From NCBI GenBank assembly GCA_015061695.1, contig SUWA01000003.1:65-64064 (forward strand): DNA of 64,000 nucleotides. The letters are read 5' to 3'. The DNA comes from Lentisphaerota bacterium (GTDB lineage: Bacteria > Verrucomicrobiota > Lentisphaeria > Victivallales > Victivallaceae). This document shows, piece by piece, positions 5,060-47,233 of this stretch. Under the pieces are notes generated by a model, which saw nothing but the letters and a program-made list of their open reading frames with translations, was not told the origin of the DNA and did no database searches. Each line of letters opens with the position of its first letter. The first letter of the stretch is position 1. Both the position numbers and the translations under genes were made by a program.

Positions 5060-5066
5060 ATTTTTG

Positions 5067-12039: not shown

Positions 12040-12080
12040 TATTGAGTGGAAGCATGTTTATATTTTGATTCAAGTTTGAA

Positions 12081-12121: not shown

Positions 12122-12217
12122 TTTTTGGTTGCTACAAGAATAAAAAATGCTTTTAAACTGATCTGATAACAAAAACTCAAAAGCGTAAAAAACATGACAA
12201 ATTAAGGTCCCAAATCC

Positions 12218-12246
12218 TTGACAAACAATTCAAATTGATGTATACT
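12218..12246 (+). promoter_or_regulatory. Near-consensus sigma70 promoter of the second pseudopilin-like gene
   Basis: TTGACA (12218-12223), 17-nt spacer, TATACT (12241-12246), with the ATGTATACT motif. Confidence 0.7.
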
Positions 12247-12272
12247 TTTACCAGGAGTTCGATGAGAGTGAA

Positions 12273-13040: not shown

Positions 13041-13081
13041 TATTGCTTGTAAGCCTGTTTGTATTTTGATTTAAGTTTGAG

Positions 13082-13130
13082 GCTTGCCGGAAGCTGAATA
13101 CGGCACCGGCAAGCCCTTTTTGTGTTTTTT
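13082..13130 (+). terminator. Rho-independent terminator (duplicate of 12081-12121)
   Basis: Stem GCTTGCCGG (13082-13090) / CCGGCAAGC (13106-13114), followed by a T-rich tract. Confidence 0.8.
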
Positions 13131-13152
13131 TTGCTGATAGAAGGATAAAAAA

Positions 13153-16720: not shown

Positions 16721-16802
16721 CCCTTGTTAAAAAAATGATAAACATGTTAATATAGCACTGTTTACACATATTTTCAAACCACAAAGCATTTTATCATCGG
16801 AT

Positions 16803-16850
16803 AAAAAAACTCCACCCGGCTATTTACCCGAATGGAGTTTTGTTTTTTTA
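16803..16850 (-). terminator. Rho-independent terminator of the giant surface-protein gene
   Basis: Imperfect hairpin AACTCCACCCGG / CCGAATGGAGTT, flanked by A7 and T-rich runs, 14 nt past the stop at 16864. Confidence 0.7.
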
Positions 16851-16863
16851 CTCAAGTCGAACT

Positions 16864-30814: not shown

Positions 30815-30842
30815 TTGACAACGATAAAAAAATGTGTATATT
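30815..30842 (+). promoter_or_regulatory. Near-consensus sigma70 promoter of the GntR/PBP1 regulator gene
   Basis: TTGACA (30815-30820), 16-nt spacer, TATATT (30837-30842), preceded by TGTG. Confidence 0.65.
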
Positions 30843-30851
30843 TTAATTCAA

Positions 30852-30871
30852 GAATTTAGTCGACCAACTTT
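30852..30871 (+). promoter_or_regulatory. GntR-type operator (autoregulatory copy)
   Basis: GAATTTAGTCGACCAACTTT matches 17/20 positions of the perfect palindrome at 31967-31986. Lies between the -10 box and ATG 30886. Confidence 0.65.
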
Positions 30872-30885
30872 TTAAAAGGAATTTT

Positions 30886-31917
30886 ATGGTTCCATATCTG
30901 AAAATTGCTGAAGAAATAGAAAAAGCGATTGCCGGTGGAGTGTATACCTCGCAGCTTCCGCATATAAACGCGTTGTGTACTATCTATAAATCCGGACCAT
31001 CGACCATAAAACGGGCATTGCAAAAACTCAAAGAACAGGATTATATCCGCGGCATCCGGGGCAGCTGCATAGAAGTCAACCCGGCAGCATGTAACAATCC
31101 GTATTTCCGGAAACAGGTTGTGGTTTACGCGGTTATGCGTAAATTTGGTAATATATTCTATTCCAATATGCTGCAGCAGTTGGGCGAAGCATTTGCTTCC
31201 GTCGGATGCAGTCTGAGTATCGTTAACACCCTGCAAAATTTACAGGAAGTTTCCGGCAAGATCCATGCGGTATTGATGCTGGAACCAAATCTGCACGAGT
31301 TGGAATGCGTGGAAAGTGTTTGCGGCAAAGAAAAAATTCTGCTCATCAACAGTGATCTGCACGAAGGCCGCAGTATCCGGAGCGACAACTATGCCGCCGG
31401 ATTTATGGCAATGGAGTATCTGCACGGAAAATGCAAACATCGCAAGATCGCTATATTGGGACGCAGTTGCGATGTGGAATATTCGTTTGACCTGCAGCGT
31501 GTTACCGGTGCTTATGAATATGCCGGCCAGCACGATGATTTGCAGATAACGACCGTTAAGGTCGATTCAGCAGATAGCGTGGAGCAGCAGCTGTTGCAAA
31601 CCTTTGGGTGTGAGCCGGAAGTATCGGCGTTTTTTCTGTTGCGCGATTATTTTGCATTCGGCGTTTACAACTATTGCACCCGATGCAATCTGCCGATACC
31701 GGAAAAAATTGCTGTTCTGGGTTTTGACGATCGCGAGTTCTGCGGCTTGCTGCAGCCGCCGCTTTCATCGTTTCAGGAAGACGGCCAGACCATCGCCAAT
31801 CTGGTATTTGAAAAAACACTGCAGCTTTTACGCCGGGAAAATGAGCAGATAGGTGATTTAAGTGTGCCTCCTGAACTGATGTTGCGTAACAGCACCGGGT
31901 TGTTTGAGAATCAATGA
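30886..31917 (+). CDS. Transcriptional regulator: GntR-type winged-helix N-terminus fused to a LacI/PBP1-type sugar-binding domain
   Basis: N-terminus YLKIAEEIEKAIAGGVY..LPHINALCTIYKSGPSTIKRALQKLKEQDYIRGIRGSCIEV. C-terminal periplasmic-binding-fold pattern (IAVLGFDD). Confidence 0.78.
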   Translation: MVPYLKIAEEIEKAIAGGVYTSQLPHINALCTIYKSGPSTIKRALQKLKEQDYIRGIRGSCIEVNPAACNNPYFRKQVVVYAVMRKFGNIFYSNMLQQLGEAFASVGCSLSIVNTLQNLQEVSGKIHAVLMLEPNLHELECVESVCGKEKILLINSDLHEGRSIRSDNYAAGFMAMEYLHGKCKHRKIAILGRSCDVEYSFDLQRVTGAYEYAGQHDDLQITTVKVDSADSVEQQLLQTFGCEPEVSAFFLLRDYFAFGVYNYCTRCNLPIPEKIAVLGFDDREFCGLLQPPLSSFQEDGQTIANLVFEKTLQLLRRENEQIGDLSVPPELMLRNSTGLFENQ

Positions 31918-31966
31918 TTTCTGCAATGCATACGATAAAACGTGTGCTGGAAATTTTTTTTAGTAA

Positions 31967-31986
31967 AAAGTTAGTCGACTAACTTT
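31967..31986 (+). promoter_or_regulatory. GntR-type operator: perfect 20-bp palindrome in front of the 1342-aa protein gene
   Basis: AAAGTTAGTCGACTAACTTT, with the GT-N2-AC core typical of GntR-family sites. Lies 32 nt upstream of ATG 32018. Confidence 0.7.
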
Positions 31987-32017
31987 GAGAATATGTAAAA
32001 AAAATGGATTTGAACAG

Positions 32018-35000
32018 ATGATTGTTCATAAAAAAGCTGCGTTTTTGCGCATTGACAGTTTCATCCGGAACAAGCGGAAAAATAATCACAGTTCCGGCAG
32101 TTGGTGCCACTATACGATAAAAACAGCAGTGATCTGTTTTTTGTGCATTTTTTCTGCAACAGATTTATCGGCAGAATTACAAACTGAAAGGAATATATAC
32201 AGCAGTATGGTACAGTGTGAGAAATTTAAGGCGGAAGATTTTTCGGGTCATTTTACAATCGACCCGGAACATGGTTTCAAGCATTCCGGAGCGATCCGTG
32301 TCAATGATGACCGTTCTGATGCGGTGATCACTGCCGTCAGCCGCAAGCTGCCGATCGCCGCTGACTGCGGTTATTACTTGCGCGGCTTAGTCAAGACCAA
32401 TAATGCTGTTACATCTCACACGCTTATCCAACTGAACTTCTGCAGCAAAGAAAACCAACTGCTTAAATCTGTAACCACAGCCCCCACGGTCAGCGCAGAG
32501 TGGGTAAAAATGGAGTTGTTGGTATCTCCGCAGGAGATTCCTTCATCTGCAGAATATATGCAAATACATCTGATTCCTGCGGCTGGTGAAGAATCTGCAA
32601 CCGGATGCAGCTGGTTCGATGAGTTGCAATTAGTCAAATATTCGTCAATACCGACCCAAGTCCAACTCCGCAGTGATGAAGATGATATAACTGATTCAAG
32701 TTTTTTTATCGACAGTTCTTCAAGTAAACTTCCGATGCGTGATCTGCCGGTCGAATTGAAAGACGGCAATTGTTTTTCCGCGTGGATGCCGTACCGTGAT
32801 GATCCGGCACCCACGCTGGAAATAAGCTGGGGGCAAAACCGCCAGTGTTCAAGAGTGCTGCTGCTGCCCGGTTCTGACGGTACTTTGCCGGAATATCTGG
32901 ATGTAAGTATTTATGATACCAGCAAGCTGTCGTTTACAGAAAAGAAGCGTCTGCCGGTAATCACAGAACCGACCTCCCCCTGGAGCTATATTGAATTGAA
33001 TGATTTGCCGGATACCCGCAAGATAAAACTTTATCTGCCGGCGGCACAAAAGAATAAATTATGTGAAATGCGCATATGTGTACGCAAAAAACAGTTTGAA
33101 AATTACAGCGGATACTGGATTTGGCACACCCGTGAAGCTGAAGGCCATATCAAACGGGTGCTGCGCAAAAAATTCACCCTGTCTGCGGCAGTCGAAAAAG
33201 CCTATTTACAGGGCCGCGGCGATGATGAAGTGATCTTTTACATCAACGGTCAGCAATGCCATTTCGGAGAAATCACCCGATATCTGCAAAGCGGAGAAAA
33301 TATTCTGGTTGCCGAAGTTACCAACCACCGATATGTAGGTGGTTTATTAGCGGAACTCGAAATATTGTGCAGTGACCGCAGTATATACAGGGTCGTCAGC
33401 GACAAAACCTGGAAGACCGCCTATTGTCCGGATGGACCGCCGGACTACCGGAAATTGGAATTTGACGACAGCAGTTGGGATCACGCACTGGAAATCGTAC
33501 AACCGCCTTACGGTATCTGGGGCGAAGTAGCTTATACCATGCACCTTGGGCGGCTGCCGGTGCGGTTGGATAAAGAGTTTTTCCCTGCCCAAGTCGATGC
33601 CGGCAGTACGCTGGATATTGCTGTGGAAATGACTCCGGAAGTACAGCTTGACTCCCCCATTCCGGTAACGTTGAAAATCTGCCGCAATCAGCAAACTTTT
33701 GCCGTTTATCAGCTCGATGGCGGCAAACTTTTGCATCATGCCGCCGCCGGAAAACCCATCCGGCTTACTTCACAAATAAAACTCAGCTGTTTTTATCCGC
33801 CCGGCGAATACGATGTAGAGCTCAACCTGCCGTTTGTGGAACTTTCCGGACAACCGTCGCGGCAGAAAGTTTTTATTGCCAATCCCCGTACCTCCGCCCT
33901 GCCCGTTGCCGAAATCCGGAAAGATGGCAGGCAAATGCCGCAGCTGTATATCAACGGACAAAAGGTCTGGAACATTTTTTACACCGTACCGTATGCGGCA
34001 GGTCCGGCAATGCAAACAACCATGATCCGGGAGTTTCATAACGCCGGCTGCAAAGTGGCACGTGTTTGGGCGCACATGCAAATACTGGATGACAACAGTT
34101 TTGATTTTACCACCATAGATGCCCAGATAAATCAGGTTCTGTCCGATGATCCTGATACATTCATAATCTTGTGCTTCATGATGGATCGCGGCATACAGAA
34201 TGATTTTTTCCGAAAAAAATATCCGGAGGAAATGGTAGTTTTTGATGATGGTACCATGTTCAAAAAACCGTCGCTGGCTTCAGAAAAATGGCACTCGATC
34301 GCCGGAAACTCCATCCGCACAATGCTGAAACATATTCAACGCGCCCCCTATGCGGGGAGGATCATCGGGTATTTGCCCTGTGGCGGCGAAGAAGGTCAAT
34401 GGCTTCACCATTGGGGCAGCAATGACCCGAAACAACCGGGTACATTGAGCGACTACAGCCTGCCCATGCTGCGTTATTTCAGGAGCTATTTGCAAAAGAA
34501 ATATCAAACTGATGAAAAACTCCAACAGGCGTGGCGCGACGATTCAGTAACCTTGCAAACCGCCGCAATTCCCTCCCGTCAGGCGCGGATCATGCCGGTA
34601 AACGGCGGCATGTTCCGTTCTCCGGAACGCGACCAGTCCGCGATCGACTTTGGTGAGGCGCTTTCGAGCTGTATAAATTATAATATCAAATATTATGCCA
34701 AGATCATCAAAGAGGAAACTCAAGGCAAATCGCTGACCGGATTCTTTTATGGACATATTGCCGATGTTGGTGATGGTTATATTGCCGAACAATCCGGATA
34801 TTTGAATCAACAGGAACTGCTGGAAGCTGACGATATCGACTTTTTCTGCGGTCCGCTTGAATACCGCTGGTTCTTCCGAGACCTCGGAGGAGTTTCGAGT
34901 TTTGATTATCCGACACCGTCAATGTTGCGCAGCTACAACAAGCTATGGATACAGGAAGATGATCTGCGTACCCATTTATTTCCGCGCGAGTACGCCTACA

Positions 35001-36046
35001 GCATCCGGCGGCCAGAAGAAGCCTGTGCAGTTATGGCCCGGGAATTTGCCAAAACGCTGCTGGGCGGTGCCATGATGTATCTGCATGAATTCGGCAGCGA
35101 CCAGCGCAACTGGTTTGATGACGTTATGATTCTTCAGGAGTTGGCAAAATTACAGAAAATCGGTCAGTATGCCATCGAAAATGACTCACTGGCACCGGTC
35201 AGCGAAATAGCAGTTATCGCCAGCGAAAAAGTTTTCCATTACATGCGGCAGGAAAAACGTTATGTATTTACCGACCAGGTCGGTACCCGGGGATTTTTTC
35301 AGCGCGCCGGAGTGGGACGCATCGGAGCACCGTTTGAAGAATATACGGTCGATGCGTTCTGCCATGATAAGGCGATGCCGGACTATAAGTTCTACATCTT
35401 TTTGAACGTATATTATCTGACAGATGAAGAACGCGCCGCCATTGAACAGAAACTGGGTCGCAACAACGCCACCGCGCTCTGGTTTTATGCGCCCGGATAC
35501 CACGACGGGTACAGCGGTAATCTGGAAAATGTACATAAAAATATCGGGATCAACCTCAAAACCATTGATGTAAAAACTGGCTTGCAAATGCAAATGCTGC
35601 CGGATAACAAGCTGCTGCAAAACCATCTTGCTCCATTCGGAATGTACGAAGAAGATGTCCTGACTCCGGTGTTTGCACTTGACGACCCGGCCGCCGAACC
35701 GCTGGCAATACTCTGCAACAGCGATGCGGTAACTCTGGCACGGAAAAAACGCAATAATGTAACTCATTATTACGCAGCGTTCCCGCAGTTGCCGCCGGAA
35801 GTACTGCGGGCCATGGCTCAGCAGGCCGGAGTGCATATTTATTCGGATAAAAATGATGCAGTATATGTATGCGAAGATTATCTGGCAATCCACACTTGCC
35901 GCGATGCAGCAGAACGCACCGTACATCTGCCGCAAACCCGCTACGCAGTAATGGTTTATCCGCAGCATGCCGCGCTGGGATCAGTCAATACCATAGAGTT
36001 GAAGTCTGATGTACCGCAAACTTTTATTTACCGGTTAAAAAAATGA
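32018..36046 (+). CDS. Large secreted/anchored CBM4_9-like domain protein with a jelly-roll segment and a TIM-barrel glycosidase-like (GH42/GH35-like) C-terminal half
   Basis: ORF 31985 (TTG) trimmed to ATG 32018. Hydrophobic N-terminal segment TAVICFLCIFSATDLSA. CBM4_9-like block ..GAIRVND..YYLRGLVK..WVKMEL..SWFDELQLV. Later motifs YWIWH..VIFYINGQ and PQLYINGQKVW..FHNAGCKVARVW. Confidence 0.7.
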   Translation: MIVHKKAAFLRIDSFIRNKRKNNHSSGSWCHYTIKTAVICFLCIFSATDLSAELQTERNIYSSMVQCEKFKAEDFSGHFTIDPEHGFKHSGAIRVNDDRSDAVITAVSRKLPIAADCGYYLRGLVKTNNAVTSHTLIQLNFCSKENQLLKSVTTAPTVSAEWVKMELLVSPQEIPSSAEYMQIHLIPAAGEESATGCSWFDELQLVKYSSIPTQVQLRSDEDDITDSSFFIDSSSSKLPMRDLPVELKDGNCFSAWMPYRDDPAPTLEISWGQNRQCSRVLLLPGSDGTLPEYLDVSIYDTSKLSFTEKKRLPVITEPTSPWSYIELNDLPDTRKIKLYLPAAQKNKLCEMRICVRKKQFENYSGYWIWHTREAEGHIKRVLRKKFTLSAAVEKAYLQGRGDDEVIFYINGQQCHFGEITRYLQSGENILVAEVTNHRYVGGLLAELEILCSDRSIYRVVSDKTWKTAYCPDGPPDYRKLEFDDSSWDHALEIVQPPYGIWGEVAYTMHLGRLPVRLDKEFFPAQVDAGSTLDIAVEMTPEVQLDSPIPVTLKICRNQQTFAVYQLDGGKLLHHAAAGKPIRLTSQIKLSCFYPPGEYDVELNLPFVELSGQPSRQKVFIANPRTSALPVAEIRKDGRQMPQLYINGQKVWNIFYTVPYAAGPAMQTTMIREFHNAGCKVARVWAHMQILDDNSFDFTTIDAQINQVLSDDPDTFIILCFMMDRGIQNDFFRKKYPEEMVVFDDGTMFKKPSLASEKWHSIAGNSIRTMLKHIQRAPYAGRIIGYLPCGGEEGQWLHHWGSNDPKQPGTLSDYSLPMLRYFRSYLQKKYQTDEKLQQAWRDDSVTLQTAAIPSRQARIMPVNGGMFRSPERDQSAIDFGEALSSCINYNIKYYAKIIKEETQGKSLTGFFYGHIADVGDGYIAEQSGYLNQQELLEADDIDFFCGPLEYRWFFRDLGGVSSFDYPTPSMLRSYNKLWIQEDDLRTHLFPREYAYSIRRPEEACAVMAREFAKTLLGGAMMYLHEFGSDQRNWFDDVMILQELAKLQKIGQYAIENDSLAPVSEIAVIASEKVFHYMRQEKRYVFTDQVGTRGFFQRAGVGRIGAPFEEYTVDAFCHDKAMPDYKFYIFLNVYYLTDEERAAIEQKLGRNNATALWFYAPGYHDGYSGNLENVHKNIGINLKTIDVKTGLQMQMLPDNKLLQNHLAPFGMYEEDVLTPVFALDDPAAEPLAILCNSDAVTLARKKRNNVTHYYAAFPQLPPEVLRAMAQQAGVHIYSDKNDAVYVCEDYLAIHTCRDAAERTVHLPQTRYAVMVYPQHAALGSVNTIELKSDVPQTFIYRLKK

Positions 36047-36183
36047 AATAAATACTTTTCGACCCAACAAATAAACCAGTAACAATCCGCACAGGGAAGG
36101 AGTTTCAAAAGCGGAACCATGTTCGAATCATAAAAGCAATTATCAACGTTGAAAATTGATGACAAATCTGTCAGGAGGAAAAG

Positions 36184-36921
36184 ATGATGAAGTTACAGAC
36201 AACTGAAACACGTACAATCCGCAGCAAACGCTCATTTACACTTATTGAACTGCTGGTAGTTATTGCCATTATTGCCATTCTGGCAGCTATGCTGCTGCCG
36301 GCATTATCTGCCGCGCGTGAACGCGCCCGCAGTGCAGCGTGTATCAACAACCTCAAAGGCCTGGGCATGAGCATGCTGTTTTATGCTGACGACAATAAAC
36401 AAATGATTATGGCTCCGAGTTATGCCCGCAATTCCTGGTACAGCCTGCATGTCGGATTCGGCAACAACGAATACCTCAAAGATCTGGTCTATGAAAAGAG
36501 TGAATCCGTTGCCCGCTGCCCCAGCCATCCGCTGATCGACAAAGCCACTCTGGAAATGGAAAACCAGACCTACGGTATGGTCTTTGACACCACCAGTCTG
36601 CCTGCCGCAGCGGTCATCCGCAACGCCGGAGTCAACGGCGAAACGTTTATTCTGGTCGATAAAGCCCAACCTTCGCAGTGCGGGTTGCTTTTTGACTCCT
36701 ACAGTGAGTCCCTGAAGTGTCAGTACCCGGCAATCGTGCGTCATGCCTGGGGCTACAGTTATCACATGCGTCATGGCAAAGTTGCCAACGGTTTCTTCCT
36801 TGACGGCCATGCACAAGGCTGTCAGGACGGTGATCTGGTGGCTCTTACCGAAATCGCCCAGGTTCCGGGCGAAGCAGTGTGCGCATACACCGCCAGCGGT
36901 GAGCAAAAACGTCTGCGCTGA
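36184..36921 (+). CDS. Prepilin-type N-terminal domain / H-X9-DG (DUF1559-type) pseudopilin-like protein
   Basis: AGGAGG RBS. N-terminus ..RSKRS|[44 protein letters not shown] matches H-X9-DG. Confidence 0.88.
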
Positions 36922-36950
36922 TCACCTGATCGGTTGAACAGGGAGTTTTT

Positions 36951-39900
36951 ATGAGTATATCCAATAACATATTGCGTTTGTTCGGCAGTTTTCTGATCAT
37001 GGTATCCGGCAGTTTTATCGTTAAGGGCGAAGAAAGCACATCCGGTCTTGTCGGTATGCAGGAAACTGTTATTGCCAACGGAAAATCCGCCCCCAATGGT
37101 TATTTATTTTACACCAATGATCCGGATAATTACCGGGGGATCGTCAGCTATGCACACAGCAGCGACGGCATCCTCGGTATCCGGGGCAGTAAAGATAACG
37201 ATAACTATGCTTCATGGGAAGTTGTGCCGGAAGTCAAACTGCCGGCCGGTAACACCTACAGGATCAGTGCCGGAATAAAACACTCTCAACTGAGCGACAA
37301 ACAGCATATCGGTATTGAGATATACAGTTTTGATGCCGCCGGTAATCCCAAACGGTTGATACATGTACTGCATAACAACAGCATTATCGACCAATGGCAC
37401 ACTATCGGCGGCGAATTCACCGTACCGGAAGATTCGGCACGGTTGCGCGTCAGGATCGATCTGACCAGTCCCGGAGAGATGTTTTTCCGCGATCTGCGGA
37501 TAACATCTCAACAGGATTCAGCTCAAACTGCCGCACGTCTTTATCAACCGGGCAATTTTGATTTTATACAAGGTTACGTTAGTGATACTAACGGTTTGCC
37601 GGCAGCTGAACTGCCGCAGGAAATGCGTTATTATGACGGTAATACCCTGCATACGATCCCACATTGTTCCGTAGCGGAAGACTCCGGCAAAGCAATATTC
37701 ACCCTCAATGGTGAAACCGGAGTCAACCGCTCAATGCGCTGGATCAAAAAACTTGATTCGGCAGTTGATTTGAGTCAAATGCAGTTTTTCAGCATCCGTT
37801 ACCGCATTACCAATGTACTGCGCGCAATACCGGTAGCCGCAGTGGTTCAACTGCGCGGATATGATGAAAAAAACAACGCAGTCAAGGTGGATATGCTCAC
37901 CAGCAGCATTGCGTTTGATGACGGAGCTTTTCATACCGTAAGCGGAAAGCTGCCGGATAATTTCTGTCTTTCTGAAATCTCCGTACAGCTCAAAACCAAC
38001 TCATCCGGCTCGGTGCTGGAAATCGCCGACATAGCATTTTATAAACAATTGCCGCAAAGCGATTGCTCCGCTGCTGAATATCCAGCTGATTTTGTCAGTG
38101 TGGATTTAAATCGGTTCTTTAATGTCTCTGCAGCGGATGTTTACGCAGAAAATCTTGCCAAATACACCTTTATGGTGGATCGGGTACTGCAATTTACGCC
38201 CGAAAAAAACATTGTCAAACTCGAAAATATACCTTTCAAATTAAGTGATCAACCGCTCAATCTGGTCAAGCCGCCGTTTGACAACAGCAAAAATGCAGAA
38301 ACTTTTCCTTTCCTCGGCGAAACCGGAACTCGCAAAAACATCTCGCCGGTATCGCGCGAAGATGTCATTGAAATACCGGTCAACCGGAGCGGCGCCGCAC
38401 TCTATATGCTTTTGATCAACGGCACCAACCCGGAACAGATACGTTATACGCTGGGGCGCCGTCCGCTGCGGTTGGACGACATGGAAAATCTGACCGTAAC
38501 TTTGCATTACAGCGACAATACTCAAGTCCGGGCCTTCCCCTACTCGCTGGAAAATAAAGCATTTTATATTTCAGGCCGCAGTTCCGGTGTTTATGCCGTA
38601 AAACTCGATCCTGCCAAAACATTGACCAAAGTTACTCTGGGATTCCACTCCTATCATGTACACATGTATCTGGCAGCAGTTTCCATTGGCAGCCGGACTC
38701 CGGAGTTTGCCGCCCTGCTGGATGCACCGCCTGAAATACAGCGTCCGGTCAGCAAACCGCTTGCCGCCCCCGTAAAACTCGCACTCAACGGCAGCCGGTT
38801 GCAGGTAAATGAATTTATATTCGACCTCTCCGATGGTTTTTCCACCGTCAGGATCCCTTGCGGAACTGTTGATACATCTTCCGGTATCGGAGTACGCATG
38901 AACAATAACTTTTATACCGGACGCAACTTCAAAGTAACCGATGTGTCCATCAAAGATCAACAAGCACAAATCGTTCTGCAGGGCAAAGCTGAATACCTGC
39001 CGGGAGTAACGCTTTATCTGACCATCAAACCCAATACTGCAAGCGGTATCATCTGGCAGGTCAGGGTTGCCAACAACACCTCCAAGTCGATGAAACTGCA
39101 AGTTGCCCCCGGCGCATTGAATAAATTGCGTATGGCCGGCGGCGATGCGGTCTGTTTTCCGCGATTCCGCACCGAAGTAAGCAGTGAACCGGCATCTTAC
39201 CGGGCCGCCTACGGTCAGGAATTCATGCATCAGTTTATGGATTTCTTCAATTCTGATGCCAATAGCGGTCTTATGATGTGGGTCGACAACCGCAATAACT
39301 CCAAAATCGAGTTTATTGCTTCGCTCAACTCAAGCGGCATCAATGGTGCGATCGCCTTACAGGAGCGTTATTCGGAAGTTCCCGCCGGAGGCAGTATTGA
39401 TTTATCGCCGGTCAGCTGGCAGCCCCATGCCGGCGATTGGCACAGCGCGTTGGCCATATACAGGGATTTTCTGGATTCATTCTATGACCGCGGCAACGAC
39501 AGTGCCCGCAATTATTTCTTTGAATCAATGGTCAACAATTGTTATCACACTACCCACACGCTTTCGTGGCGCTTCTACAAAGTACCGCCGCTGTTGAGCA
39601 AAGATAAAAAAACCTGGTACATTGACGAAGTACATGAATTTGAAAAGCAGCATCTGGGGCGCAAACTGGATTTTGTTCACCTCTGGTGGAGCTACAACGA
39701 TGCCGAAGACCGTTTTTCGTACGGTCAGTGGGCAAGCGACAAATTCTATGCTCAATCCGGCGGTTTGGAGTCGTTCCGCGAAGCGATCCGGCACTATCAG
39801 GAGGATCTGAAAATACCCGTATCCCTTTACACGATCAGCGACCGGGTCAAAAATGCCGATGTGGAAGGTACCGGATTCGATGCAGAAAAGATGGTCAAAG

Positions 39901-40796
39901 CCTACCCCAATGGCGCTTTGCTGCTGAATGAAAGTGAGAGTTACACTTGTTTGTGTGCCGATGCATGGGTCGATTTTGCGGTTCAGGATCTGGCAAAACT
40001 TATGCGCGACACCGGCGCAAAAATCATCTACAGCGATGTGGTCAGCAGTTTCAATAATTCCGTGTGTTACAGTCCCAAACATGGCCACCCGGTTCCCTCG
40101 AACTCGACCGAAGGCGACCTGAAGTTTATTTACAAACTCCGTCAGGCCCTGCCGGATGATGTGGCGATCTGGACCGAGTACGGTCAGCCGGATACCACCA
40201 GCATGTACAGCGACGGATTTATTTCCTATTATTTTCAGGAATTGCAGGAATTTTTTGCCCCGGTCGGCGACCGCAGCGACCACCGGAATTCAAGATTTTT
40301 TGAAGTGCCGTTTGCCTCGGTACGATATCTTCTGCCGCGCTACAAACTCTTTGTATTGCCGGTAGGGCTGGAGGCCGGCAATAAGCCTTCGCAAGCCGAT
40401 TATGCCTTCTTTAACGGCGAAACTTTCCACGAAGATACCTGGTTCATGCACGACAGCCGCATCCGGCACCGGCTCAACCGGGCATTGGCAATCAAAGATG
40501 AATACAAAGATTGCTTCCTGACCATGACTCCGGAACCGCGGGTACAAACTCTGGCAGGCGGAGTTTACGCCAACCGCTTCCCCGGCAAAAACCGGACTTT
40601 GTGGACGGTTTACAACGCAACCGCCATGACCGTAAACAAGCCGCTGCTGGCCATCGACCACCAGCCCGGGGCCCGCTACATTGATGCGTGGAACGGGCAG
40701 GAACTTGCGCCGCAGATCGTCGATAACAAAGCAATAATTACGCTGGAGATCCATCCCCAGCAGAACGGAGCTGTAGTTCAAGTTCTGAATAAATAA
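36951..40796 (+). CDS. Large (1281-aa) secreted CBM4_9-like domain protein with a glycosidase-like C-terminal region
   Basis: Signal peptide MSISNNILRLFGSFLIMVSGSFIV. CBM4_9-like block ..ASWEVVPEVKLPAGNTYRISAGIKH..WHTIGGEFTVPEDSARLRVRIDL. C-terminal part has WQPHAGDWHSALAIYRDF and TIM-barrel-like motifs. Catalytic family not assignable by eye. Confidence 0.7.
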   Translation: MSISNNILRLFGSFLIMVSGSFIVKGEESTSGLVGMQETVIANGKSAPNGYLFYTNDPDNYRGIVSYAHSSDGILGIRGSKDNDNYASWEVVPEVKLPAGNTYRISAGIKHSQLSDKQHIGIEIYSFDAAGNPKRLIHVLHNNSIIDQWHTIGGEFTVPEDSARLRVRIDLTSPGEMFFRDLRITSQQDSAQTAARLYQPGNFDFIQGYVSDTNGLPAAELPQEMRYYDGNTLHTIPHCSVAEDSGKAIFTLNGETGVNRSMRWIKKLDSAVDLSQMQFFSIRYRITNVLRAIPVAAVVQLRGYDEKNNAVKVDMLTSSIAFDDGAFHTVSGKLPDNFCLSEISVQLKTNSSGSVLEIADIAFYKQLPQSDCSAAEYPADFVSVDLNRFFNVSAADVYAENLAKYTFMVDRVLQFTPEKNIVKLENIPFKLSDQPLNLVKPPFDNSKNAETFPFLGETGTRKNISPVSREDVIEIPVNRSGAALYMLLINGTNPEQIRYTLGRRPLRLDDMENLTVTLHYSDNTQVRAFPYSLENKAFYISGRSSGVYAVKLDPAKTLTKVTLGFHSYHVHMYLAAVSIGSRTPEFAALLDAPPEIQRPVSKPLAAPVKLALNGSRLQVNEFIFDLSDGFSTVRIPCGTVDTSSGIGVRMNNNFYTGRNFKVTDVSIKDQQAQIVLQGKAEYLPGVTLYLTIKPNTASGIIWQVRVANNTSKSMKLQVAPGALNKLRMAGGDAVCFPRFRTEVSSEPASYRAAYGQEFMHQFMDFFNSDANSGLMMWVDNRNNSKIEFIASLNSSGINGAIALQERYSEVPAGGSIDLSPVSWQPHAGDWHSALAIYRDFLDSFYDRGNDSARNYFFESMVNNCYHTTHTLSWRFYKVPPLLSKDKKTWYIDEVHEFEKQHLGRKLDFVHLWWSYNDAEDRFSYGQWASDKFYAQSGGLESFREAIRHYQEDLKIPVSLYTISDRVKNADVEGTGFDAEKMVKAYPNGALLLNESESYTCLCADAWVDFAVQDLAKLMRDTGAKIIYSDVVSSFNNSVCYSPKHGHPVPSNSTEGDLKFIYKLRQALPDDVAIWTEYGQPDTTSMYSDGFISYYFQELQEFFAPVGDRSDHRNSRFFEVPFASVRYLLPRYKLFVLPVGLEAGNKPSQADYAFFNGETFHEDTWFMHDSRIRHRLNRALAIKDEYKDCFLTMTPEPRVQTLAGGVYANRFPGKNRTLWTVYNATAMTVNKPLLAIDHQPGARYIDAWNGQELAPQIVDNKAIITLEIHPQQNGAVVQVLNK

Positions 40797-40859
40797 CCCA
40801 TATTACACCAGCAGAATGTATAACTTCTGAATATATTTTCTTAAATACAAATCAAACAT

Positions 40860-40906
40860 GCAACGGCTGCAGAATCAACGAATCTTGCAGCCGTTGCCTT
40901 TTTTAT
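40860..40906 (+). terminator. Rho-independent terminator
   Basis: 12-bp stem GCAACGGCTGCA / TGCAGCCGTTGC, followed by CTTTTTTATT. Confidence 0.85.
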
Positions 40907-40949
40907 TCTGTAAATTGGCTGCGACATACAAATTTTTATCAACTTTGAC

Positions 40950-40978
40950 TTGACAAACCGTAAAAGGTTATGTATACT
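40950..40978 (+). promoter_or_regulatory. Consensus sigma70 promoter of the tandem pseudopilin-like pair
   Basis: TTGACA (40950-40955), 17-nt spacer, TATACT (40973-40978), with the ATGTATACT motif. Implies a ~120-nt leader. Confidence 0.7.
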
Positions 40979-41103
40979 ATTACCGTAGCAGTTTGCAGGC
41001 GAAACGGTTCAGGCGTTATCCAATGCGGAAAAACGGTTCCGTTATGCTATCAACGTTGGGATAAGTAAGTAAGTGTAAAAATATAAAAAAGGAAAAGCGG
41101 AGC

Positions 41104-41790
<687 letters not shown>

Positions 41791-41830
41791 TAAATCCAAT
41801 ATTCTATCAACATAACGAAAGGTATATTTT

Positions 41831-42529
41831 ATGAAAAAACAATTTACTCTGATCGAACTTCTGGTTGTGATTGCCATCATTGCCATTCTGGCGGCGATGC
41901 TGCTGCCGGCACTCTCGGCTGCGCGCGAACGCGCCCGCGTTGCCAGTTGCGTAAGCAATCTCAAACAGATCGGTACTGCTAATTTGATGTATTGCGACGA
42001 TAACAACGGTTGGCGCGCACAGAACAACCGTGAAAAGCCCAATTTCACCACTATGGGTACCGGCGTTGCCACTACTTCAGCAAGCGCCTTACACCCGCAC
42101 ACTTTCCACACCTACTTTTCAGCCGGCGATGTATCCAGCACTACCGAAGTTGAAGAATATATAAATCGTTATTGGCGCTGTCCCTCCGATACCAACAACG
42201 CCAACAAAGCGGCCAACGGCAGTGTAAAAATCGGTAACAGCAGTTATTTCGGTTATTGGATCGCAGCTGCTGATGTTCCCGGCTACGGTTATACCGAAGC
42301 TGACAAATCAACCAGACAGCGCAACAGCACCCAGTGCGATCCGGGCAATGCCATTTTCACTGACTGCGGCATGCCGTGGCACCTCGGCACCACGGATGTA
42401 TTCAGCAACCATGCAAATTCATTCAATATCCTTGCCATGGGCGGCGATGTAACGAGTATTCCCAAGCCGACCAAAACGACTGCCGGCAGCAGCTGGAAAA
42501 CCGGTATCCAGTTCCTTGACAAGCAGTAA
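41831..42529 (+). CDS. Prepilin-type N-terminal domain / DUF1559-type pseudopilin-like protein (H-X9-GG variant), tandem paralog
   Basis: N-terminus MKKQ|[33 protein letters not shown]-terminal [22 protein letters not shown]. Roughly 60% identical by eye to 41104-41790. Confidence 0.85.
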
Positions 42530-42555
42530 AAAAGCGTAAACAACGCGCATATCCA

Positions 42556-42599
42556 GGGGGCTGTTGCAAAACTGTTTTGCAACACCCCCATTTTATTTT
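42556..42599 (+). terminator. Rho-independent terminator
   Basis: Stem GGGGGCTGTTGCAAAA / TTTTGCAACACCCCC with one bulge, followed by ATTTTATTTT. Confidence 0.8.
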
Positions 42600-42719
42600 C
42601 CGGGAACTCTGCTGAAAATAAAAATTCATCTGCAGCATAAAATATAACCATTCTGCGCCCCGCAATACTGTTATGGTCAAAAATAAGCTGATAAATCCTG
42701 ATAATCCGATTTTTACGAC

Positions 42720-42748
42720 TTGACAAAAACGATTTTTGAATGTAAACT
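42720..42748 (+). promoter_or_regulatory. Near-consensus sigma70 promoter of the three-gene secreted-protein operon
   Basis: TTGACA (42720-42725), 17-nt spacer, TAAACT (42743-42748), preceded by ATG. Implies a ~105-nt leader. Confidence 0.65.
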
Positions 42749-42856
42749 TATTTTGGTAGTTTTTTGCAGGTGATTTGAGCGTAACTCAAAAAACTTTTGC
42801 CGGTTATTAAAAACTGTAAAATTTAACATAACACTCAATCAAACAAAGGATCGTGT

Positions 42857-44725
42857 ATGAAAAAATTCACCCGTTTATCCTGCCTTTTGCTGGCAGGAGC
42901 CTCAACGGCGTTATGCGCCGCTGATTTACCGTTCATTGCACCGGAAAATGTCAAACCGCTGCCGATCAAGGCCGAACTGACTCCCGGCGGTGCAGTGGAA
43001 GTCAAACTCAACAACTTGAGTTACACGGTCAATGCTGATTTTTCGCTTCAGCCGGGCTGGGCCAAGTTTACGGAGAAAAAAGCCGAAGGGTTCAAAACCT
43101 TTACCGTCAAGGGCAATACGCTGGAAGCCACCGGACCGGATTTTGCGCTCAAACGCACCATCGAGGTCAAAGACGAAGCGGTAGTCGTAACCGATAAGAT
43201 CACAAATACCGGCAAAGAAGATCTGCCCTTTATGTACCGCCAGTACCTGACTTACAAGGTCAAACCCAAAGAATACCGGCTGTGCGGCTACCGCATCTAT
43301 TCGCGCCGCGGCAACGGCAACAGCGGCATCAACAGCACGACTATTGTCATGCCTCAATCGGGCGGTTCGGTCGGTTTGCTGGCGCTCAACGACGTATTCA
43401 GAGTACACTTCCGCGCCTTTTCGGCCAAAGGCTTGTACGGCATCGGCGACGATAATCTGATCATTCAGCCCGGCGTTACGCAGGAAATGAGCTTCGCAAT
43501 TTTCCCATCCGAAAAGAGCGATTACTACAGCCAGATCAACGCCATGCGCCGTTTTCTCGGTATAAATTACGAAATCGCCCGCGGCTTTGCGTTCCTTACG
43601 CCCAACCCGCCGGGGGTGATCACATTTACCGATGGAGTTTTCCGTATCGGCAGAGAAAACAGCGTTGAAGAACTGCGCACCTGGATCAACAACAAATCCG
43701 CCACCTATCTGGTGGCCGGTGCCGTGGAGCGTTTCGGCGAAAAATCGCACGGTTCGGCGTGGATGAAAACCGCCAAACCCGAGATCCATAAAGAATTTTA
43801 CAAAAAAGTCCGCGCCGCCAAACCCGATGCTGTAGTAATGCACTACTATCACAGCTATCTGGATGTCAAGGCCTTTATGACCGATACTTACGAAGAAGCC
43901 CGCAACCTCAAACCCAATGGCGAACAATCCGACTACCGCAATCCGGCGCTGCCGCTCTATCTGCCCGTGGAAGGCAACTCCTGGGCCAGGCTGCAGGAAG
44001 ATCGCATCGAACGGCTGATCAATGAATACGGCGTAGACGGTATTTTCTGGGATGAATTCCCCCACAGTGCCAGTAACTACCACTTTGCTGAACCCTGGGA
44101 CGGTGTTTCCGGCGACATCCACCCGCGCACTCACAAGATCACCCAAAAGAAAACCTCGGTAGCGCTGGTAACGCTGCCCTGGCGCAAACGCATGGTCGAA
44201 AAAATGGCCGACAAAGGTATTTTCCTGATCGCCAACGGCGGCGGCTACACCAAAACCATGACCGATTTGTTTATCAAAAACAAATTCATCGCCTTTATGG
44301 AAACCGGCAGCGCCAGCAACCTCAACCACAGCCACCTTTCCACCCCGATCGGGCTGGGCGACCACCTGACCGAACGCAGTGAACTGGATTGCTACCGCAA
44401 CATGGTGCGCTTCCTGGATTACGGCAGCCTCTACTTCTACTACCACCAGCAGGTTGAACCGTTCACCCACCCGACTCTGGCCGAGTACATGTTCCCCATC
44501 ACCCCGGTGGAACTGCACGAAGGCTACATCATCGGCAAAGAACGCATCCTGACCAACCGTTCCGGCTATTACAGCTTCGGCGGTAACGAAAATGCTGAAT
44601 TGCACTTCTATGATGCCAACGGCTTTGAAGTCAAACGGCCGGTGGAAAAACTGGTCAAAGACGGCAAGACCTACTACAAAGTAGTGCTGGCCGAACATGA
44701 ATCCTGCGCTATCGTCAAAAAATAA
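42857..44725 (+). CDS. Secreted hypothetical protein, beta-sandwich N-terminus plus TIM-barrel glycosidase-like C-terminal half
   Basis: Signal peptide MKKFTRLSCLLLAGASTALCA. Later YGVDGIFWDEFPH resembles a glycosidase TIM-barrel strand. No family assignable by eye. Confidence 0.65.
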   Translation: MKKFTRLSCLLLAGASTALCAADLPFIAPENVKPLPIKAELTPGGAVEVKLNNLSYTVNADFSLQPGWAKFTEKKAEGFKTFTVKGNTLEATGPDFALKRTIEVKDEAVVVTDKITNTGKEDLPFMYRQYLTYKVKPKEYRLCGYRIYSRRGNGNSGINSTTIVMPQSGGSVGLLALNDVFRVHFRAFSAKGLYGIGDDNLIIQPGVTQEMSFAIFPSEKSDYYSQINAMRRFLGINYEIARGFAFLTPNPPGVITFTDGVFRIGRENSVEELRTWINNKSATYLVAGAVERFGEKSHGSAWMKTAKPEIHKEFYKKVRAAKPDAVVMHYYHSYLDVKAFMTDTYEEARNLKPNGEQSDYRNPALPLYLPVEGNSWARLQEDRIERLINEYGVDGIFWDEFPHSASNYHFAEPWDGVSGDIHPRTHKITQKKTSVALVTLPWRKRMVEKMADKGIFLIANGGGYTKTMTDLFIKNKFIAFMETGSASNLNHSHLSTPIGLGDHLTERSELDCYRNMVRFLDYGSLYFYYHQQVEPFTHPTLAEYMFPITPVELHEGYIIGKERILTNRSGYYSFGGNENAELHFYDANGFEVKRPVEKLVKDGKTYYKVVLAEHESCAIVKK

Positions 44726-44752
44726 ATTTTAATCACCATAAGGAAAAAAATC

Positions 44753-46024
44753 ATGTTGAAACAACTCTTTACCGCCGGGTTGGCTGCCGCAGCTTTTTCG
44801 GCTATGGCCGCCGCTGAAATCACGGTCAGCAGCACTCCGGCGCTGCCGGCACAAAACCTGCTCAAAAACGCCTCGTTTGAGGATGGAAAACTCGCTCCGT
44901 GGCGTCCTTTCGGCGGCACGGTTGCCATTGACGGCGCTACCCAAACCGATGGGGCAAACAGCTTTAAGATTGTCGGCGACCCGGCCAAAAGCCCCGGGCT
45001 GTCGCAGTATATCCGTCCGGCAGATATTCCGCTCAAGGCCAAAGACCTTTATTACATAAAATTCAAAGCCAAAAACACCGGCTGCGATATTGACAAACGC
45101 CCCGGCGGTGTGGCCTGGCAGGCGGTTTATTCCGATGGCACCAAGCCTTCCTATATGCGCACACCGGAACTGCCCAGAGAAGATTATGACTGGACCGAGT
45201 TCGAAATGGTCAACACCATCCCCCACGACCTTAAAACTGCCACGTTCTACCTTTGCTACTACAAGCAGGAGGGCGAACAGTGGTTTGACGAAGTCGTTTT
45301 TCAGGGCGGATCGACCGAACTGACGCTCAATGTAAAAGGCGACGATGTCAAGCAAGTCGTGGTTCTGCACAGCCAGACCGGCAAGATCCTGGACGAAAAA
45401 GTGGCCGACAATTCGTTCAGCAAAACGATCAAAGTCCCGGCTTTCGGCAGCTACGAAGTTATTGCCATCGACTCCAATGGCGTCAGAACCAGCAAACTTT
45501 ACCCGGAAAACGTGGATGTGAATACTGCGGTAAAGAACAATAACATTCCGCTGACTCTGGTCAAGCGTATGCTCATACCTTTCAGCAAGGCCGAAACGTT
45601 CAATATCGAACTGCCCGCCGACATAGCCGGTAAAAAGGTCTATCTGGACTTTACCGGCCGTATTGACCAGCTCACGACCATGGCCGGCTTCACCGCCGGG
45701 GTAAAAATCAAAGTCAACAGCAAGCAGTGCGGAGCTAAAGAGTTGATCAAACCGGCCAACAAAGCTACGACTTCTTCGGGCAGCGACCTGATTTTTGCCC
45801 GCAGTGCCGGCTATGTACTCTACTACAGCAACGCCAGCTACAACATCAGCGAAGACAATCACTACTGCCCGGTTACGCTGAAGGATCGCAACCCCTTCAA
45901 CTTCCGTCTGGACGTTACCCAGCTGGTCAAGCCGGGCATGAATAAGATCGAATTCATCAACCCCTTTGCTGCCAAATACCCCCGTACCATTGCGATCGAA
46001 AATGCACAGGTGGTGATCGAATGA
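44753..46024 (+). CDS. Secreted CBM4_9-like domain protein
   Basis: Signal peptide MLKQLFTAGLAAAAFSAMAAA. CBM4_9 signature NLLKNASFEDGKLAPWRPFGG..ANSFKIVG..WTEFEMV..WFDEVVFQG. Confidence 0.7.
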   Translation: MLKQLFTAGLAAAAFSAMAAAEITVSSTPALPAQNLLKNASFEDGKLAPWRPFGGTVAIDGATQTDGANSFKIVGDPAKSPGLSQYIRPADIPLKAKDLYYIKFKAKNTGCDIDKRPGGVAWQAVYSDGTKPSYMRTPELPREDYDWTEFEMVNTIPHDLKTATFYLCYYKQEGEQWFDEVVFQGGSTELTLNVKGDDVKQVVVLHSQTGKILDEKVADNSFSKTIKVPAFGSYEVIAIDSNGVRTSKLYPENVDVNTAVKNNNIPLTLVKRMLIPFSKAETFNIELPADIAGKKVYLDFTGRIDQLTTMAGFTAGVKIKVNSKQCGAKELIKPANKATTSSGSDLIFARSAGYVLYYSNASYNISEDNHYCPVTLKDRNPFNFRLDVTQLVKPGMNKIEFINPFAAKYPRTIAIENAQVVIE

Positions 46025-46800
46025 GTCTGAACAAAAAATTGCTCTATGCCGCCTTGCCGGCGTTGTTTCTGACCGGAACCTTTCCGGCAGTTGCCGCTCC
46101 GGCCCAACCGGCCGCCCGGCCGGTGATCGCCTGCCCGCAAAAGCCTGACCCGCCGCCGGTGATCGACGGAGATTGCAGCGAATGGGACAATCTGCCCGGC
46201 GCTATTACGCTGGATAAATCGCACATCACCTGGGGCGGCGCGCAATATCAGGGCGAAGATGACCTCTCCGGCACGGTGCGCATCTGCTACGACAGCAACT
46301 ACTTCTATTTTATGGTCGAAGTTGTGGACGAAGCGATTAAAGTTGCCAGCGATAAAAACATTTTTATCTCTGACCACATTGAGTTGGACTTTGCGCCCAA
46401 TTTCAAAGAAAACGGCAAAGGCCGGCAGCCGGCGGATTGGCGAATCATCGGCTTTACCCCCGGCACGGTGGAAGAATCCGGCGATCCGCTGGTGGATATG
46501 GACCCGGATGCGCTGATGGCGTTTCCGCCCAATCTGGCGTGGGAAGGCATTGATGTGGAAGCATGTGTTACCGAAGACGGCTACATGCTCGAAGCGCGCA
46601 TTCCGTGGAAAGTACTCGGTGTCAAGGGACCGGTCAAACCGGGTATGGTCTTTGGTATGGATATACACATATCTGACTCCGACAAAGACTTTGTGCAGGA
46701 GTGCATGACCAGCTTGAACAACACTACGCCGTGGAAAGGCCGCAAGCAGGAAAATATTCCGAAAATGGTTCTGACCGGTACCGACGGCAAGATCAAGTAA
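46021..46800 (+). CDS. Secreted CBM9/DOMON-like carbohydrate-binding protein
   Basis: Start overlaps the upstream stop by 4 nt (ATGA). Signal peptide ..ALPALFLTGTFPAVAAPA. Motifs PVIDGDCSEWDNLPG..VRICYDSNYFYFMVEVVDE..GYMLEARIPW. Confidence 0.72.
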   Translation: MSLNKKLLYAALPALFLTGTFPAVAAPAQPAARPVIACPQKPDPPPVIDGDCSEWDNLPGAITLDKSHITWGGAQYQGEDDLSGTVRICYDSNYFYFMVEVVDEAIKVASDKNIFISDHIELDFAPNFKENGKGRQPADWRIIGFTPGTVEESGDPLVDMDPDALMAFPPNLAWEGIDVEACVTEDGYMLEARIPWKVLGVKGPVKPGMVFGMDIHISDSDKDFVQECMTSLNNTTPWKGRKQENIPKMVLTGTDGKIK

Positions 46801-46963
46801 TCAACCGTTATCCGGTACTCCGATCGGGCTGTTGCAAGATTGAAAAGTTTTGCCGCAGCCCGCAATTTTTTTAAACCGGTCGAAAGTCTGCCGCCGGTGG
46901 TTTAAGTGTACCGCTGATGCGGCGTTAACCGCAATTTGCAGGCAGTATTGTGTGGTGGCGGCA

Positions 46964-47017
46964 GTCCGACCTGTCCGACCTGTCCGACCTGTCCGACCTG
47001 TCCGACCTGTCCGACCT
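46964..47017. repeat. Intergenic 9-bp tandem repeat, (GTCCGACCT) x6
   Basis: Six perfect head-to-tail copies at 46964-47017. A related GTCGGACTTGTCCGGCC occurs at 48009-48025. Confidence 0.95.
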
Positions 47018-47233
47018 GGCGGACACATTGCCGCCGATTACCATGCGCAGCATTTTACACAAAAAATAGAGATTTTTCACCGTAACTCCTTGAAAAAAAA
47101 CTTACAGCAAAAAATATTGATTTTTTCATACTTTTTGCTGTAAGATAGGCAGTTCCTCTACGTTTAAAATATATGAATGAACGTTAAGGTTCAGTATTAT
47201 TTAAATTCTTAAATTCCCAACAAGGAGAAAACC

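Follow-up and report, generated by a model that had tools for sequence, protein, structure and literature searches.

Type IV pilin-like DUF1559 genes adjoin genes for giant exported proteins in a Lentisphaerae glycan-degradation island

The locus described here bears on the means by which bacteria of the Planctomycetota–Verrucomicrobiota–Chlamydiota (PVC) group, which lack SusC/D, export giant enzymes and take hold of glycans. It lies in a 64-kb stretch of contig SUWA01000003.1 from a Lentisphaerota bacterium (assembly GCA_015061695.1), referred to below as the window, where genes for type IV pilin-like proteins of the DUF1559/H-X9-DG type stand among genes for very large exported proteins. 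DUF1559 is the largest paralogous family in Planctopirus limnophila, with 68 copies, two of them essential, and an unknown function (PMC10632474); dozens are present in other PVC bacteria, with 74 copies in Rhodopirellula baltica (PMC2754498). An initial annotation of the window proposed that the interleaving of such genes with glycan-active genes is an undescribed organizational principle resembling that of a polysaccharide-utilization locus (PUL). Comparison of the window with contigs from related and other genomes (loci L001–L096) lends support to the view that such operons retain their pilin-like genes, which are regulated along with the rest and have been inherited with the giant enzymes.

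Three terminators and near-consensus promoters split the region into three transcription units (TU1, TU2, and TU3; coordinates in Table 1). TU1 (30.8–40.8 kb) encodes, in order, a regulator with GntR and periplasmic-binding-protein (PBP) parts, a 1342-aa giant protein (G1353), the pilin-like protein pil36, and a second giant of 1281 aa (G1281). TU2 consists of two pilin-like genes, and TU3 encodes three exported proteins, two of which have carbohydrate-binding module (CBM) domains. For comparison with TU1, seven contigs (L001–L007) with relatives of G1281 at 44–54% identity or better were used. A pilin-like gene lies directly 5′ of the G1281 orthologue in 6 of the 7 (L001, L002, L003/L004, L005, and L007), and in 5 of the 7 the adjoining gene is an orthologue of pil36 itself, L001 being the exception. 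These pil36 orthologues are 42–46% identical to pil36 over their full length in L002, L003, and L005 and 69% identical in L007; their heads are 35–64% identical, as against 20–27% for other paralogues. In L002 and L003 the G1353 orthologue has a pilin copy of its own as well.

The neighborhood of pilin-like genes was then considered beyond TU1. The window has four pilin blocks, hence eight flanks, and all but one of these are occupied by glycoside hydrolase (GH) or CBM genes (7 of 8; permutation p = 2e-5, or p = 1e-3 when gene order was kept and only the pilin blocks were re-inserted at random). Loci picked solely by moderate similarity to pil36 repeat the layout: one reads AraC, pilin, BNR_2; in another, AraC and pilin genes are followed by those for a 695-aa protein, an MFS-like protein, a GFO oxidoreductase, and then a DUF6259 protein; and in a third the pilin gene is followed by one for a 1296-aa Laminin_G_3 + GH123 protein. 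A census of 29 independent Lentisphaerae loci, with open reading frames (ORFs) more than 3 kb away as controls, found downstream neighbors of at least 600 aa in 13 of 26 cases against 21 of 106 controls (p = 0.005) and of at least 1000 aa in 5 of 26 against 1 of 106 (p = 0.001). Export-like N-termini, scored by a crude heuristic, were found in 14 of 26 downstream neighbors and 19 of 102 controls (p = 7e-4). All of the ten largest neighbors carry Pfam domains of glycan-active proteins (one, a β-helix, only weakly), among them GH78, GH123_N, heparinase II/III, DUF4838, rhamnogalacturonase-like, and CBM domains. Control ORFs were mostly housekeeping genes, their Pfam census covering the top 25 families, such that the fraction of carbohydrate-active enzymes (CAZymes) among controls is not an exact count. 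The association of pilin-like genes with glycan genes is not a chance one, and the repeated placement beside glycan-active genes to which the initial annotation had drawn attention recurs in unrelated Lentisphaerae loci. The pairing with large enzymes appears in Lentisphaerae but not in the other PVC loci sampled, because the downstream ORF in the Verrucomicrobiota and Planctomycetota loci is usually small.

A candidate operator connects the pilin-like gene to a regulator. The motif, with the consensus TTAGTCGAC[CT]AA, has only two matches in the 64-kb window against 0.09 expected, one 5′ of the regulator gene and one 5′ of G1353, the first structural gene. The start codon of G1353 is uncertain, a TTG at 31985 abutting the operator. 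Orthologues of the regulator in L002, L003, and L005 are 29–32% identical, and the same operator motif stands 5′ of the orthologous regulator genes in L005 and L007. In both of these contigs it also precedes the pilin gene, which is therefore the first gene of a putatively regulated operon there. Taken together, a sugar-sensing GntR/PBP protein probably controls TU1 via the 16-bp palindromic operator. The motif was not found in TU2 or TU3 by the scan of the window. Treatment of the whole locus as a single GntR regulon was rejected, the operator occurring only twice and both times in TU1; because of this confinement, the GntR control ascribed to the locus by the initial annotation is kept for TU1 and is not extended to TU2 or TU3. 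Separately, L005 carries a tandem duplication of ~120 bp in the regulator–pilin intergenic region (positions 1124–1371), as a result of which the operator CTTAGTCGACCAAG stands twice ahead of the pilin gene.

Assignment of the pilin-like proteins to a superfamily was based on profile searches and a structural model. TIGR02532 and N_methyl matches are present, and a profile built from 109 relatives matches the α1 helix of solved type IV pilins (Thermus PilA, E = 1e-16) and of the PulG pseudopilus (5wda, E = 2e-6), the alignment placing the family Phe, at position 10 of the profile, on the first mature residue of the solved pilins. The best NCBIfam match is to the N-terminal half of GspG (32–36 bits, model positions 1–64 of 134), far short of the 88.85-bit cut-off of the GspG equivalog TIGR01710. 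For PF07596 (cut-off 23.3 bits), pil36, pil11, and pil12 pass with 25.0, 26.7, and 29.3 bits, and pil41a, pil41b, and pil47 just miss at 22.0–22.4 bits; most of these matches span only the first 30–50 of 268 model positions. The NCBIfam scan gave no TIGR04294 match for the pilin-like proteins; a 99%-identical protein is labeled by the Joint Genome Institute as prepilin-associated H-X9-DG (TIGR04294).

The architecture of pil36 comprises a short basic leader ending in Ser, F1 and E5, and, by prediction, a 51-residue α1 helix and a β-sheet head; the AlphaFold2 (AF2) model is confident (mean predicted local distance difference test, pLDDT, 88), with a helix at residues 20–70 followed by at least eight strands. 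Across the 109 relatives, F1, E5, most of the N-terminal part of α1, and a Cys pair are invariant, as are H197 and D207, with G208 and H209 near-invariant; together the latter four make up the C-terminal H-X9-DG(H) motif, and H-X9-DG is found in 95 of the 109. The initial annotation had described the pilin genes as H-X9-DG genes: the motif is exact in pil36, pil11, and pil12, but pil41a and pil41b have H-X9-GG. Among four window paralogues the first 32 mature residues are identical and the heads only 20–27% so, the tandem pair pil41a/pil41b reaching 55%. Third-codon positions at the conserved residues are only 51–70% identical, and for this reason α1 is taken to be under purifying selection on a shared interface; gene conversion as the source of the identical N-termini was rejected on the same grounds. 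The best reading of these comparisons is that the proteins would belong, as subunits, to the PulG/GspG-like superfamily of type IV filaments, with a ~180-residue H-X9-DG head that is hypervariable and operon-specific.

The giant proteins of TU1 were examined for carbohydrate activity, which the interpretation presupposes. G1353 had been called CBM4_9-like, a label that did not hold: it has no Pfam match, CBM4_9 included. A profile from five orthologues instead matches rhamnose-binding lectins (E = 1e-16) and the CBM67 module of SaRha78A, a GH78 rhamnosidase from Streptomyces (3w5m, E = 3e-11), both at residues ~339–481, as well as the GH42 β-galactosidase 3tts (E = 3.4e-4), the last over only ~100 residues (~622–719). 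Orthologues in L001, L002, L003, and L006 are 38–55% identical. For G1281 the CBM4_9 label was borne out (Table 1), and the family profile of its N-terminal part matches the CBM22 of Xyn10B. Only seven full-length clusters of G1281 were found among 5.8 billion proteins, and a second, word-indexed search with the G1281 profile returned nothing beyond the same seven. An exhaustive profile search with the C-terminal 722-aa fragment found 607 representative relatives, mostly of 1000–1500 aa; 38 of 40 that were scanned match DUF6259, and the 40 also bear Laminin_G_3, CBM6, CBM4_9, F5/8C, or GH115 modules. Across these 40 distant relatives, a single Asp and a single Glu of the barrel region do not vary.

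Pfam and profile searches gave no sequence-level match of G1281 to any GH family. The AF2 model of its C-terminal ~720 residues is poor (pLDDT 57, from 7 sequences) and consists of a β-sandwich, an alternating β/α region, and a second β-sandwich. The top 19 Foldseek matches of this model are all GH36 α-galactosidases or galactosaminidases (E = 9e-14 to 2e-10), after which come GH13 and GH31; because the model is poor, these fold matches are taken only as a consistent hint. On this modeling, the DUF6259 region is probably a GH36/GH13-like glycosidase. The next genes in orthologous loci encode a GH78 α-L-rhamnosidase and, in L005, also a GH28. With the CBM67, GH42, and CBM22 profile matches, the GH36 fold matches, and the GH78/GH28 neighbors, the giant proteins look carbohydrate-active, as the initial annotation had supposed. 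The target of TU1 may be a rhamnose-containing plant glycan, e.g. rhamnogalacturonan I or arabinogalactan.

The remaining features of the region are collected in Table 1. Every ORF of the earlier gene map was located at its given coordinates, Pfam (scanned on ORFs of at least 150 aa) confirmed most labels, and one further DUF1559-like gene, pil47, was added. The terminators and promoters between units likewise stood up, as three hairpin + T-run sites and promoter-like sites of the TTGACA-N16/17-TATAxT type; the regional count of such promoter-like sites is not above chance, and their support is intergenic position and match quality. Signal peptides were assigned by eye: all large proteins look export-like, as had been stated, but the N-terminus of G1353 is atypically long. 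No Rfam match was found. Elsewhere the window carries housekeeping genes (FabF, transketolase, RuvB, and PheST). G1281 matches exactly a hypothetical protein from a Lentisphaerae metagenome-assembled genome, and several of the related Lentisphaeria assemblies derive from ruminants or hindgut material. The region belongs to a glycan-degradation island in a Lentisphaerae bacterium of herbivore-gut type.

Table 1. Features of the locus and of a second module in the same window (positions in the 64-kb window; HTH, helix-turn-helix; TM, transmembrane)
Feature	Position	Strand	Remarks
Second module, LacI to GH42	5044–15198	+	
LacI regulator	5044–6141	+	second module
1717-aa F5/8C + CBM9 protein	6050–11203	+	second module
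pil11	11323–12039	+	second module
pil12, 5′-truncated pil11 duplicate	12273/12348–13040	+	second module
GH42, presumably cytoplasmic	13153–15198	+	second module
Promoter-like site 5′ of regulator gene	30815–30844	+	TTGACA-16-TATATT, 11/12
Candidate operator ATTTAGTCGACCAACT	30854–30869		2 mismatches vs perfect palindrome
GntR-HTH + PBP-fold (sugar-sensing) regulator	30886–31917	+	Pfam GntR 27.2 bits, Peripla_BP_3 70 bits
Candidate operator AGTTAGTCGACTAACT, perfect 16-bp palindrome	31969–31984		just 5′ of first structural gene
G1353, giant exported protein	32018–36046	+	CBM67-like (rhamnose-binding) + GH42-like (TIM-barrel) profile matches
pil36, type IV pilin-like DUF1559/H-X9-DG protein	36184–36921	+	Pfam N_methyl + DUF1559
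G1281, giant exported protein	36951–40796	+	Pfam CBM_4_9 (residues 74–171) + DUF6259
TU1 terminator, hairpin + T-run	~40861–40905	+	sequence reading; not listed by strict consensus scan
TU2 promoter-like site	40950–40978	+	TTGACA-17-TATACT, 11/12
pil41a, pilin-like DUF1559-type, H-X9-GG variant	41104–41790	+	N_methyl/DUF1559
pil41b, tandem paralogue of pil41a	41831–42529	+	N_methyl/DUF1559; head 55% identical to pil41a
TU2 terminator, hairpin + T-run	~42556–42599	+	sequence reading
TU3 promoter-like site	42720–42748	+	TTGACA-17-TAAACT, 10/12
p622, exported, without Pfam domain; first gene of p622-p423-p259 triad	42857–44725	+	
p423, exported CBM4_9 protein	44753–46024	+	Pfam CBM_4_9
p259, exported CBM9_1-like protein	46021–46800	+	Pfam CBM9_1
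TU3 terminator, hairpin + T-run	~46826–46872	+	sequence reading
pil47, Zn-ribbon + TM helix + DUF1559-like head, without FTLIEL/E5	47234–47980	+	

The second module repeats the pattern, as had been noted for 11.3–13.0 kb, with a LacI regulator, a 1717-aa protein, two pilin-like genes, and a GH42 gene. The two pilin-like genes, pil11 and pil12, are 81% identical at the amino acid and 78% at the nucleotide level and share a near-identical 3′ terminator. The 5′ end of pil12 has been replaced, with loss of F1–L7 including E5, and a separate promoter-like site (TTGACA-N17-TATACT, ~12219) serves pil12, which could be either a pseudogene or a variant reduced to an anchor. Because the GH42 β-galactosidase has no signal peptide and is presumably cytoplasmic, an oligosaccharide importer would be encoded outside the window. 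The protein encoded by pil47 has an N-terminal CxxC...CxxC zinc ribbon, an ordinary TM helix, and a DUF1559-like head with H-X9-GT, and by its sequence seems to be related to the pilin-like family but held in the membrane by a plain anchor. Between p259 and pil47 lies a perfect 9-bp tandem repeat (GTCCGACCT × 6.1, 46964–47018). Between the two glycan modules, a 2643-aa protein with five CARDB and nine AIDA-stalk repeats is encoded on the minus strand (16864–24795); it is a giant surface or adhesin-like protein.

With regard to TU2, a relative of pil41a and pil41b in L011 (~40% identical to both) precedes a distant homologue of G1353. The arrangement there (15825–20792) is a pil41-type pilin, a 168-aa ORF, and then the giant, which is 23% identical to G1353 over ~990 aa (E = 5e-43). 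On the same contig, which is from another Lentisphaerae metagenome-assembled genome, genes for a phage scaffold and an SU10-type major capsid protein (2514–4239) stand a few kilobases 5′ of a pilin-like gene cluster. The TU3 triad p622-p423-p259 is conserved in L094 and L096. A pattern, GTAG-N3-TTTGCAGGYGA, occurs 7–8 bp 3′ of the −10 box in both the TU2 and TU3 promoters (40985–41002 and 42756–42773). These are the only copies in the window, and none was found upstream of p622 orthologues elsewhere; because the pattern was built from these two sites and is not conserved elsewhere, it is a weak hint only. A coupling of TU2 to TU3 was considered and is not supported, the triad in L093 having no upstream pilin motif.

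The question of what the pilin-like proteins do can be approached from these results. We tentatively favor, at rather less than even confidence, a reading in which they are operon-specific type IV filament subunits for export or surface display of their cognate giant enzymes. Each glycan operon would make its own pilin-like subunit together with giant Sec-exported enzymes, and the subunit would insert into the inner membrane. A machine of the type II secretion (T2SS) or type IV pilus (T4P) kind, encoded elsewhere, would take up the subunit through the shared α1 helix, and the variable head would fit the (pseudo)pilus to the operon's own cargo or substrate. Most likely, it would help the enzymes of the same operon to cross the outer membrane or to stay on the cell surface.

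Several observations weigh against filament subunits of this kind. As the initial annotation had recorded, the scanned ORFs of the window include no T2SS or T4P machinery, nor any SusC/D, TonB receptor, or sugar importer of the ATP-binding cassette (ABC) or major facilitator superfamily (MFS) type by Pfam; the sole transporter is a Na:Ala symporter. In L006 no pilin gene separates the G1353 orthologue from the adjacent G1281 orthologue. The pilin gene between the two orthologues in L001 (8339–9307) is not a pil36 orthologue, its head being 25–29% identical, and there the position appears conserved and the gene swapped for another paralogue. No pilin gene was found within 7.8 kb upstream of the TU3 orthologues; in L093, the sole informative locus, the upstream genes are those for MazG, an ABC exporter, and an oxidoreductase, and a pilin motif is absent. 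Interleaving of pilin genes, put forward as a principle for the whole locus, is therefore retained for the conserved linkage in TU1 and not for TU3, whose triad stands elsewhere without an upstream pilin gene. Both pil12 and pil47 keep the head without F1/E5. Foldseek comparison of the pil36 model with the Protein Data Bank found no solved structure resembling the head (best E = 2.7), and because only noise was returned, the head fold was left without assignment.

The residue preceding the mature N-terminus is a further point of this kind. Canonical prepilin peptidases need Gly at position −1 and accept Ala less well. The window copies have S, K, Q, or H there. Of the 54 Lentisphaerae copies only 5 have G/A, as do just 11 of the 109 close relatives, and R, H, S, Q, and K are the prevailing residues in both sets. 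Short, basic leaders are present, without the Gly (rarely Ala) at −1 that defines class III signal peptides. The sampled Verrucomicrobiota and Planctomycetota loci differ, with G/A at −1 in 54 of 54 DUF1559 copies. Canonical prepilin peptidase cleavage is doubtful because the −1 Gly/Ala is gone, and processing in this lineage would therefore be either non-canonical or absent. Among the sequences compared, the loss of the canonical determinant appears to be lineage-specific.

A possible, though unlikely, alternative is that the variable heads bind glycan or released oligosaccharides on a fibre or on the membrane and feed an importer encoded elsewhere, as an analogue of SusD or of a solute-binding protein (SBP). 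This would suit a locus with no transporter or binding protein of its own and heads that are hypervariable and operon-specific, and it has a precedent in the Sulfolobus bindosome, in which sugar-binding proteins with class III pilin-type signal peptides need the T4P-like Bas assembly system (PMC3047682). A transporter of the sodium/solute symporter family (SSF) or MFS lies beside the pilin gene in some related operons (including PMC13274419), and the Pfam name of the family is SBP_bac_10. However, no similarity of the ~180-residue head to any solute-binding or CBM fold was detected, and the enzymes already bear several CBMs. Less probable again is a role as uncleaved bitopic inner-membrane proteins, the pilin N-terminus acting as a signal anchor and the periplasmic head as a chaperone, tether, or sensor for the giant protein, with no filament formed. 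The Lentisphaerae loss of −1 Gly/Ala, the retention of the head on a plain anchor in pil47 and pil12, and the lack of machinery nearby would all agree with it, but an invariant F1, a charged E5 within a hydrophobic helix, and 32 identical residues among paralogues are hard to explain for a mere anchor, and α1 is homologous to that of filament-forming pilins. That there is no specific link, and that DUF1559 genes come to neighbor CAZyme genes at random or as passengers on plastic islands, is most improbable. In its favor, the family is huge (more than 6700 matches below 1e-10 among 8000 candidates scored), TU2 is independent with its own promoter and terminator, the TU3 orthologues lack a pilin gene, and a non-orthologous copy fills the conserved position in L001. 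Against it, orthologous pilin–giant pairs last down to 44% identity of the giants, the shared operator puts the pilin gene first in the regulated operon in L005 and L007, and neighbors resembling large exported CAZymes are significantly enriched.

Filament subunits for export or display, as favored here, were next compared with known systems. In common with T2SS pseudopilins (GspG, major; GspH–K, minor) and type IVa pilins, the proteins have a homologous α1 with F1 and E5, a short basic leader, and, in the model, an α1 plus β-sheet architecture. They differ in the larger head, the H-X9-DG(H) motif, the conserved Cys pair, the missing fold match, and the absence of Gly at −1; and, unlike in gsp and pil clusters, their genes are scattered among catabolic operons. 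The Caldicellulosiruptor bescii system is reportedly one conventional pilus operon with its machinery, beside a CAZyme locus, in contrast to the many stand-alone subunit genes embedded singly in catabolic operons here. The type IV pilin genes of that organism are reported to be polysaccharide-regulated (bioRxiv 10.1101/614800). The Sulfolobus bindosome is alike in having pilin-type N-termini that serve carbohydrate acquisition via T4P-like assembly, as may be the case here; it is archaeal, however, and its heads are true ABC solute-binding proteins encoded beside ABC transporters (PMC3047682), whereas neither an SBP fold nor an ABC transporter is found here. Bacteroidota PULs with SusC/SusD are similar as regulator-controlled, substrate-specific clusters of exported enzymes with a recurring small non-catalytic gene, but the present locus is without SusC/D or a TonB-dependent transporter, and its recurring accessory gene is pilin-like.

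The closest parallel was reported for Verruconatronum alginivorum in 2026, in which an operon of exported lyases that is induced by alginate includes a pulG-like pseudopilin gene (67 paralogues), and growth on alginate raises expression of a second pseudopilin; export by a T2SS was proposed there (PMC13274419). As here, this operon (pgaptmp_000046-60) belongs to a PVC bacterium and places a pseudopilin among Sec-exported polysaccharide-degrading enzymes with no canonical SusC/D PUL; it differs in phylum (Verrucomicrobiota), in encoding alginate lyases, and in the SSF transporter within the cluster, and the paper contains no one-to-one pilin/giant pairs, operator, or conserved orthologous pairing (PMC13274419). 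In Kiritimatiella glycovorans a T2SS is present and TonB-dependent uptake is absent (PMC5148204). Our literature search returned nothing relevant on DUF6259, H-X9-DG, or pseudopilins of Kiritimatiella, and no publication was found in which conserved pairs of one pilin with one enzyme, the operator, or a missing −1 Gly is described. Pseudopilin-like paralogues in PVC glycan operons are thus known, and the organizational principle is not as undescribed as first proposed; what is new here is the conserved pairing with giant enzymes and the non-canonical cleavage site.

A more general proposal, which we consider possible but doubtful, is that Lentisphaerae have a hitherto undescribed PUL-like unit made up of a sugar-sensing regulator, an operon-specific pilin-like adaptor, and one or more giant exported enzymes. 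A common machine would engage the adaptors through their identical α1, their differing heads would recognize the cognate enzyme or glycan, and their maturation would be non-canonical. The locus and its orthologues supply pilin/enzyme pairs that are both conserved and co-regulated, pil36 and the DUF6259 giant being one such pair, together with a predicted operator, and the lineage-specific loss of Gly/Ala at −1 bears on the maturation of type IV filament subunits. If true, a PUL-like adaptor unit of this kind would give a function to hundreds of DUF1559 paralogues in PVC genomes.

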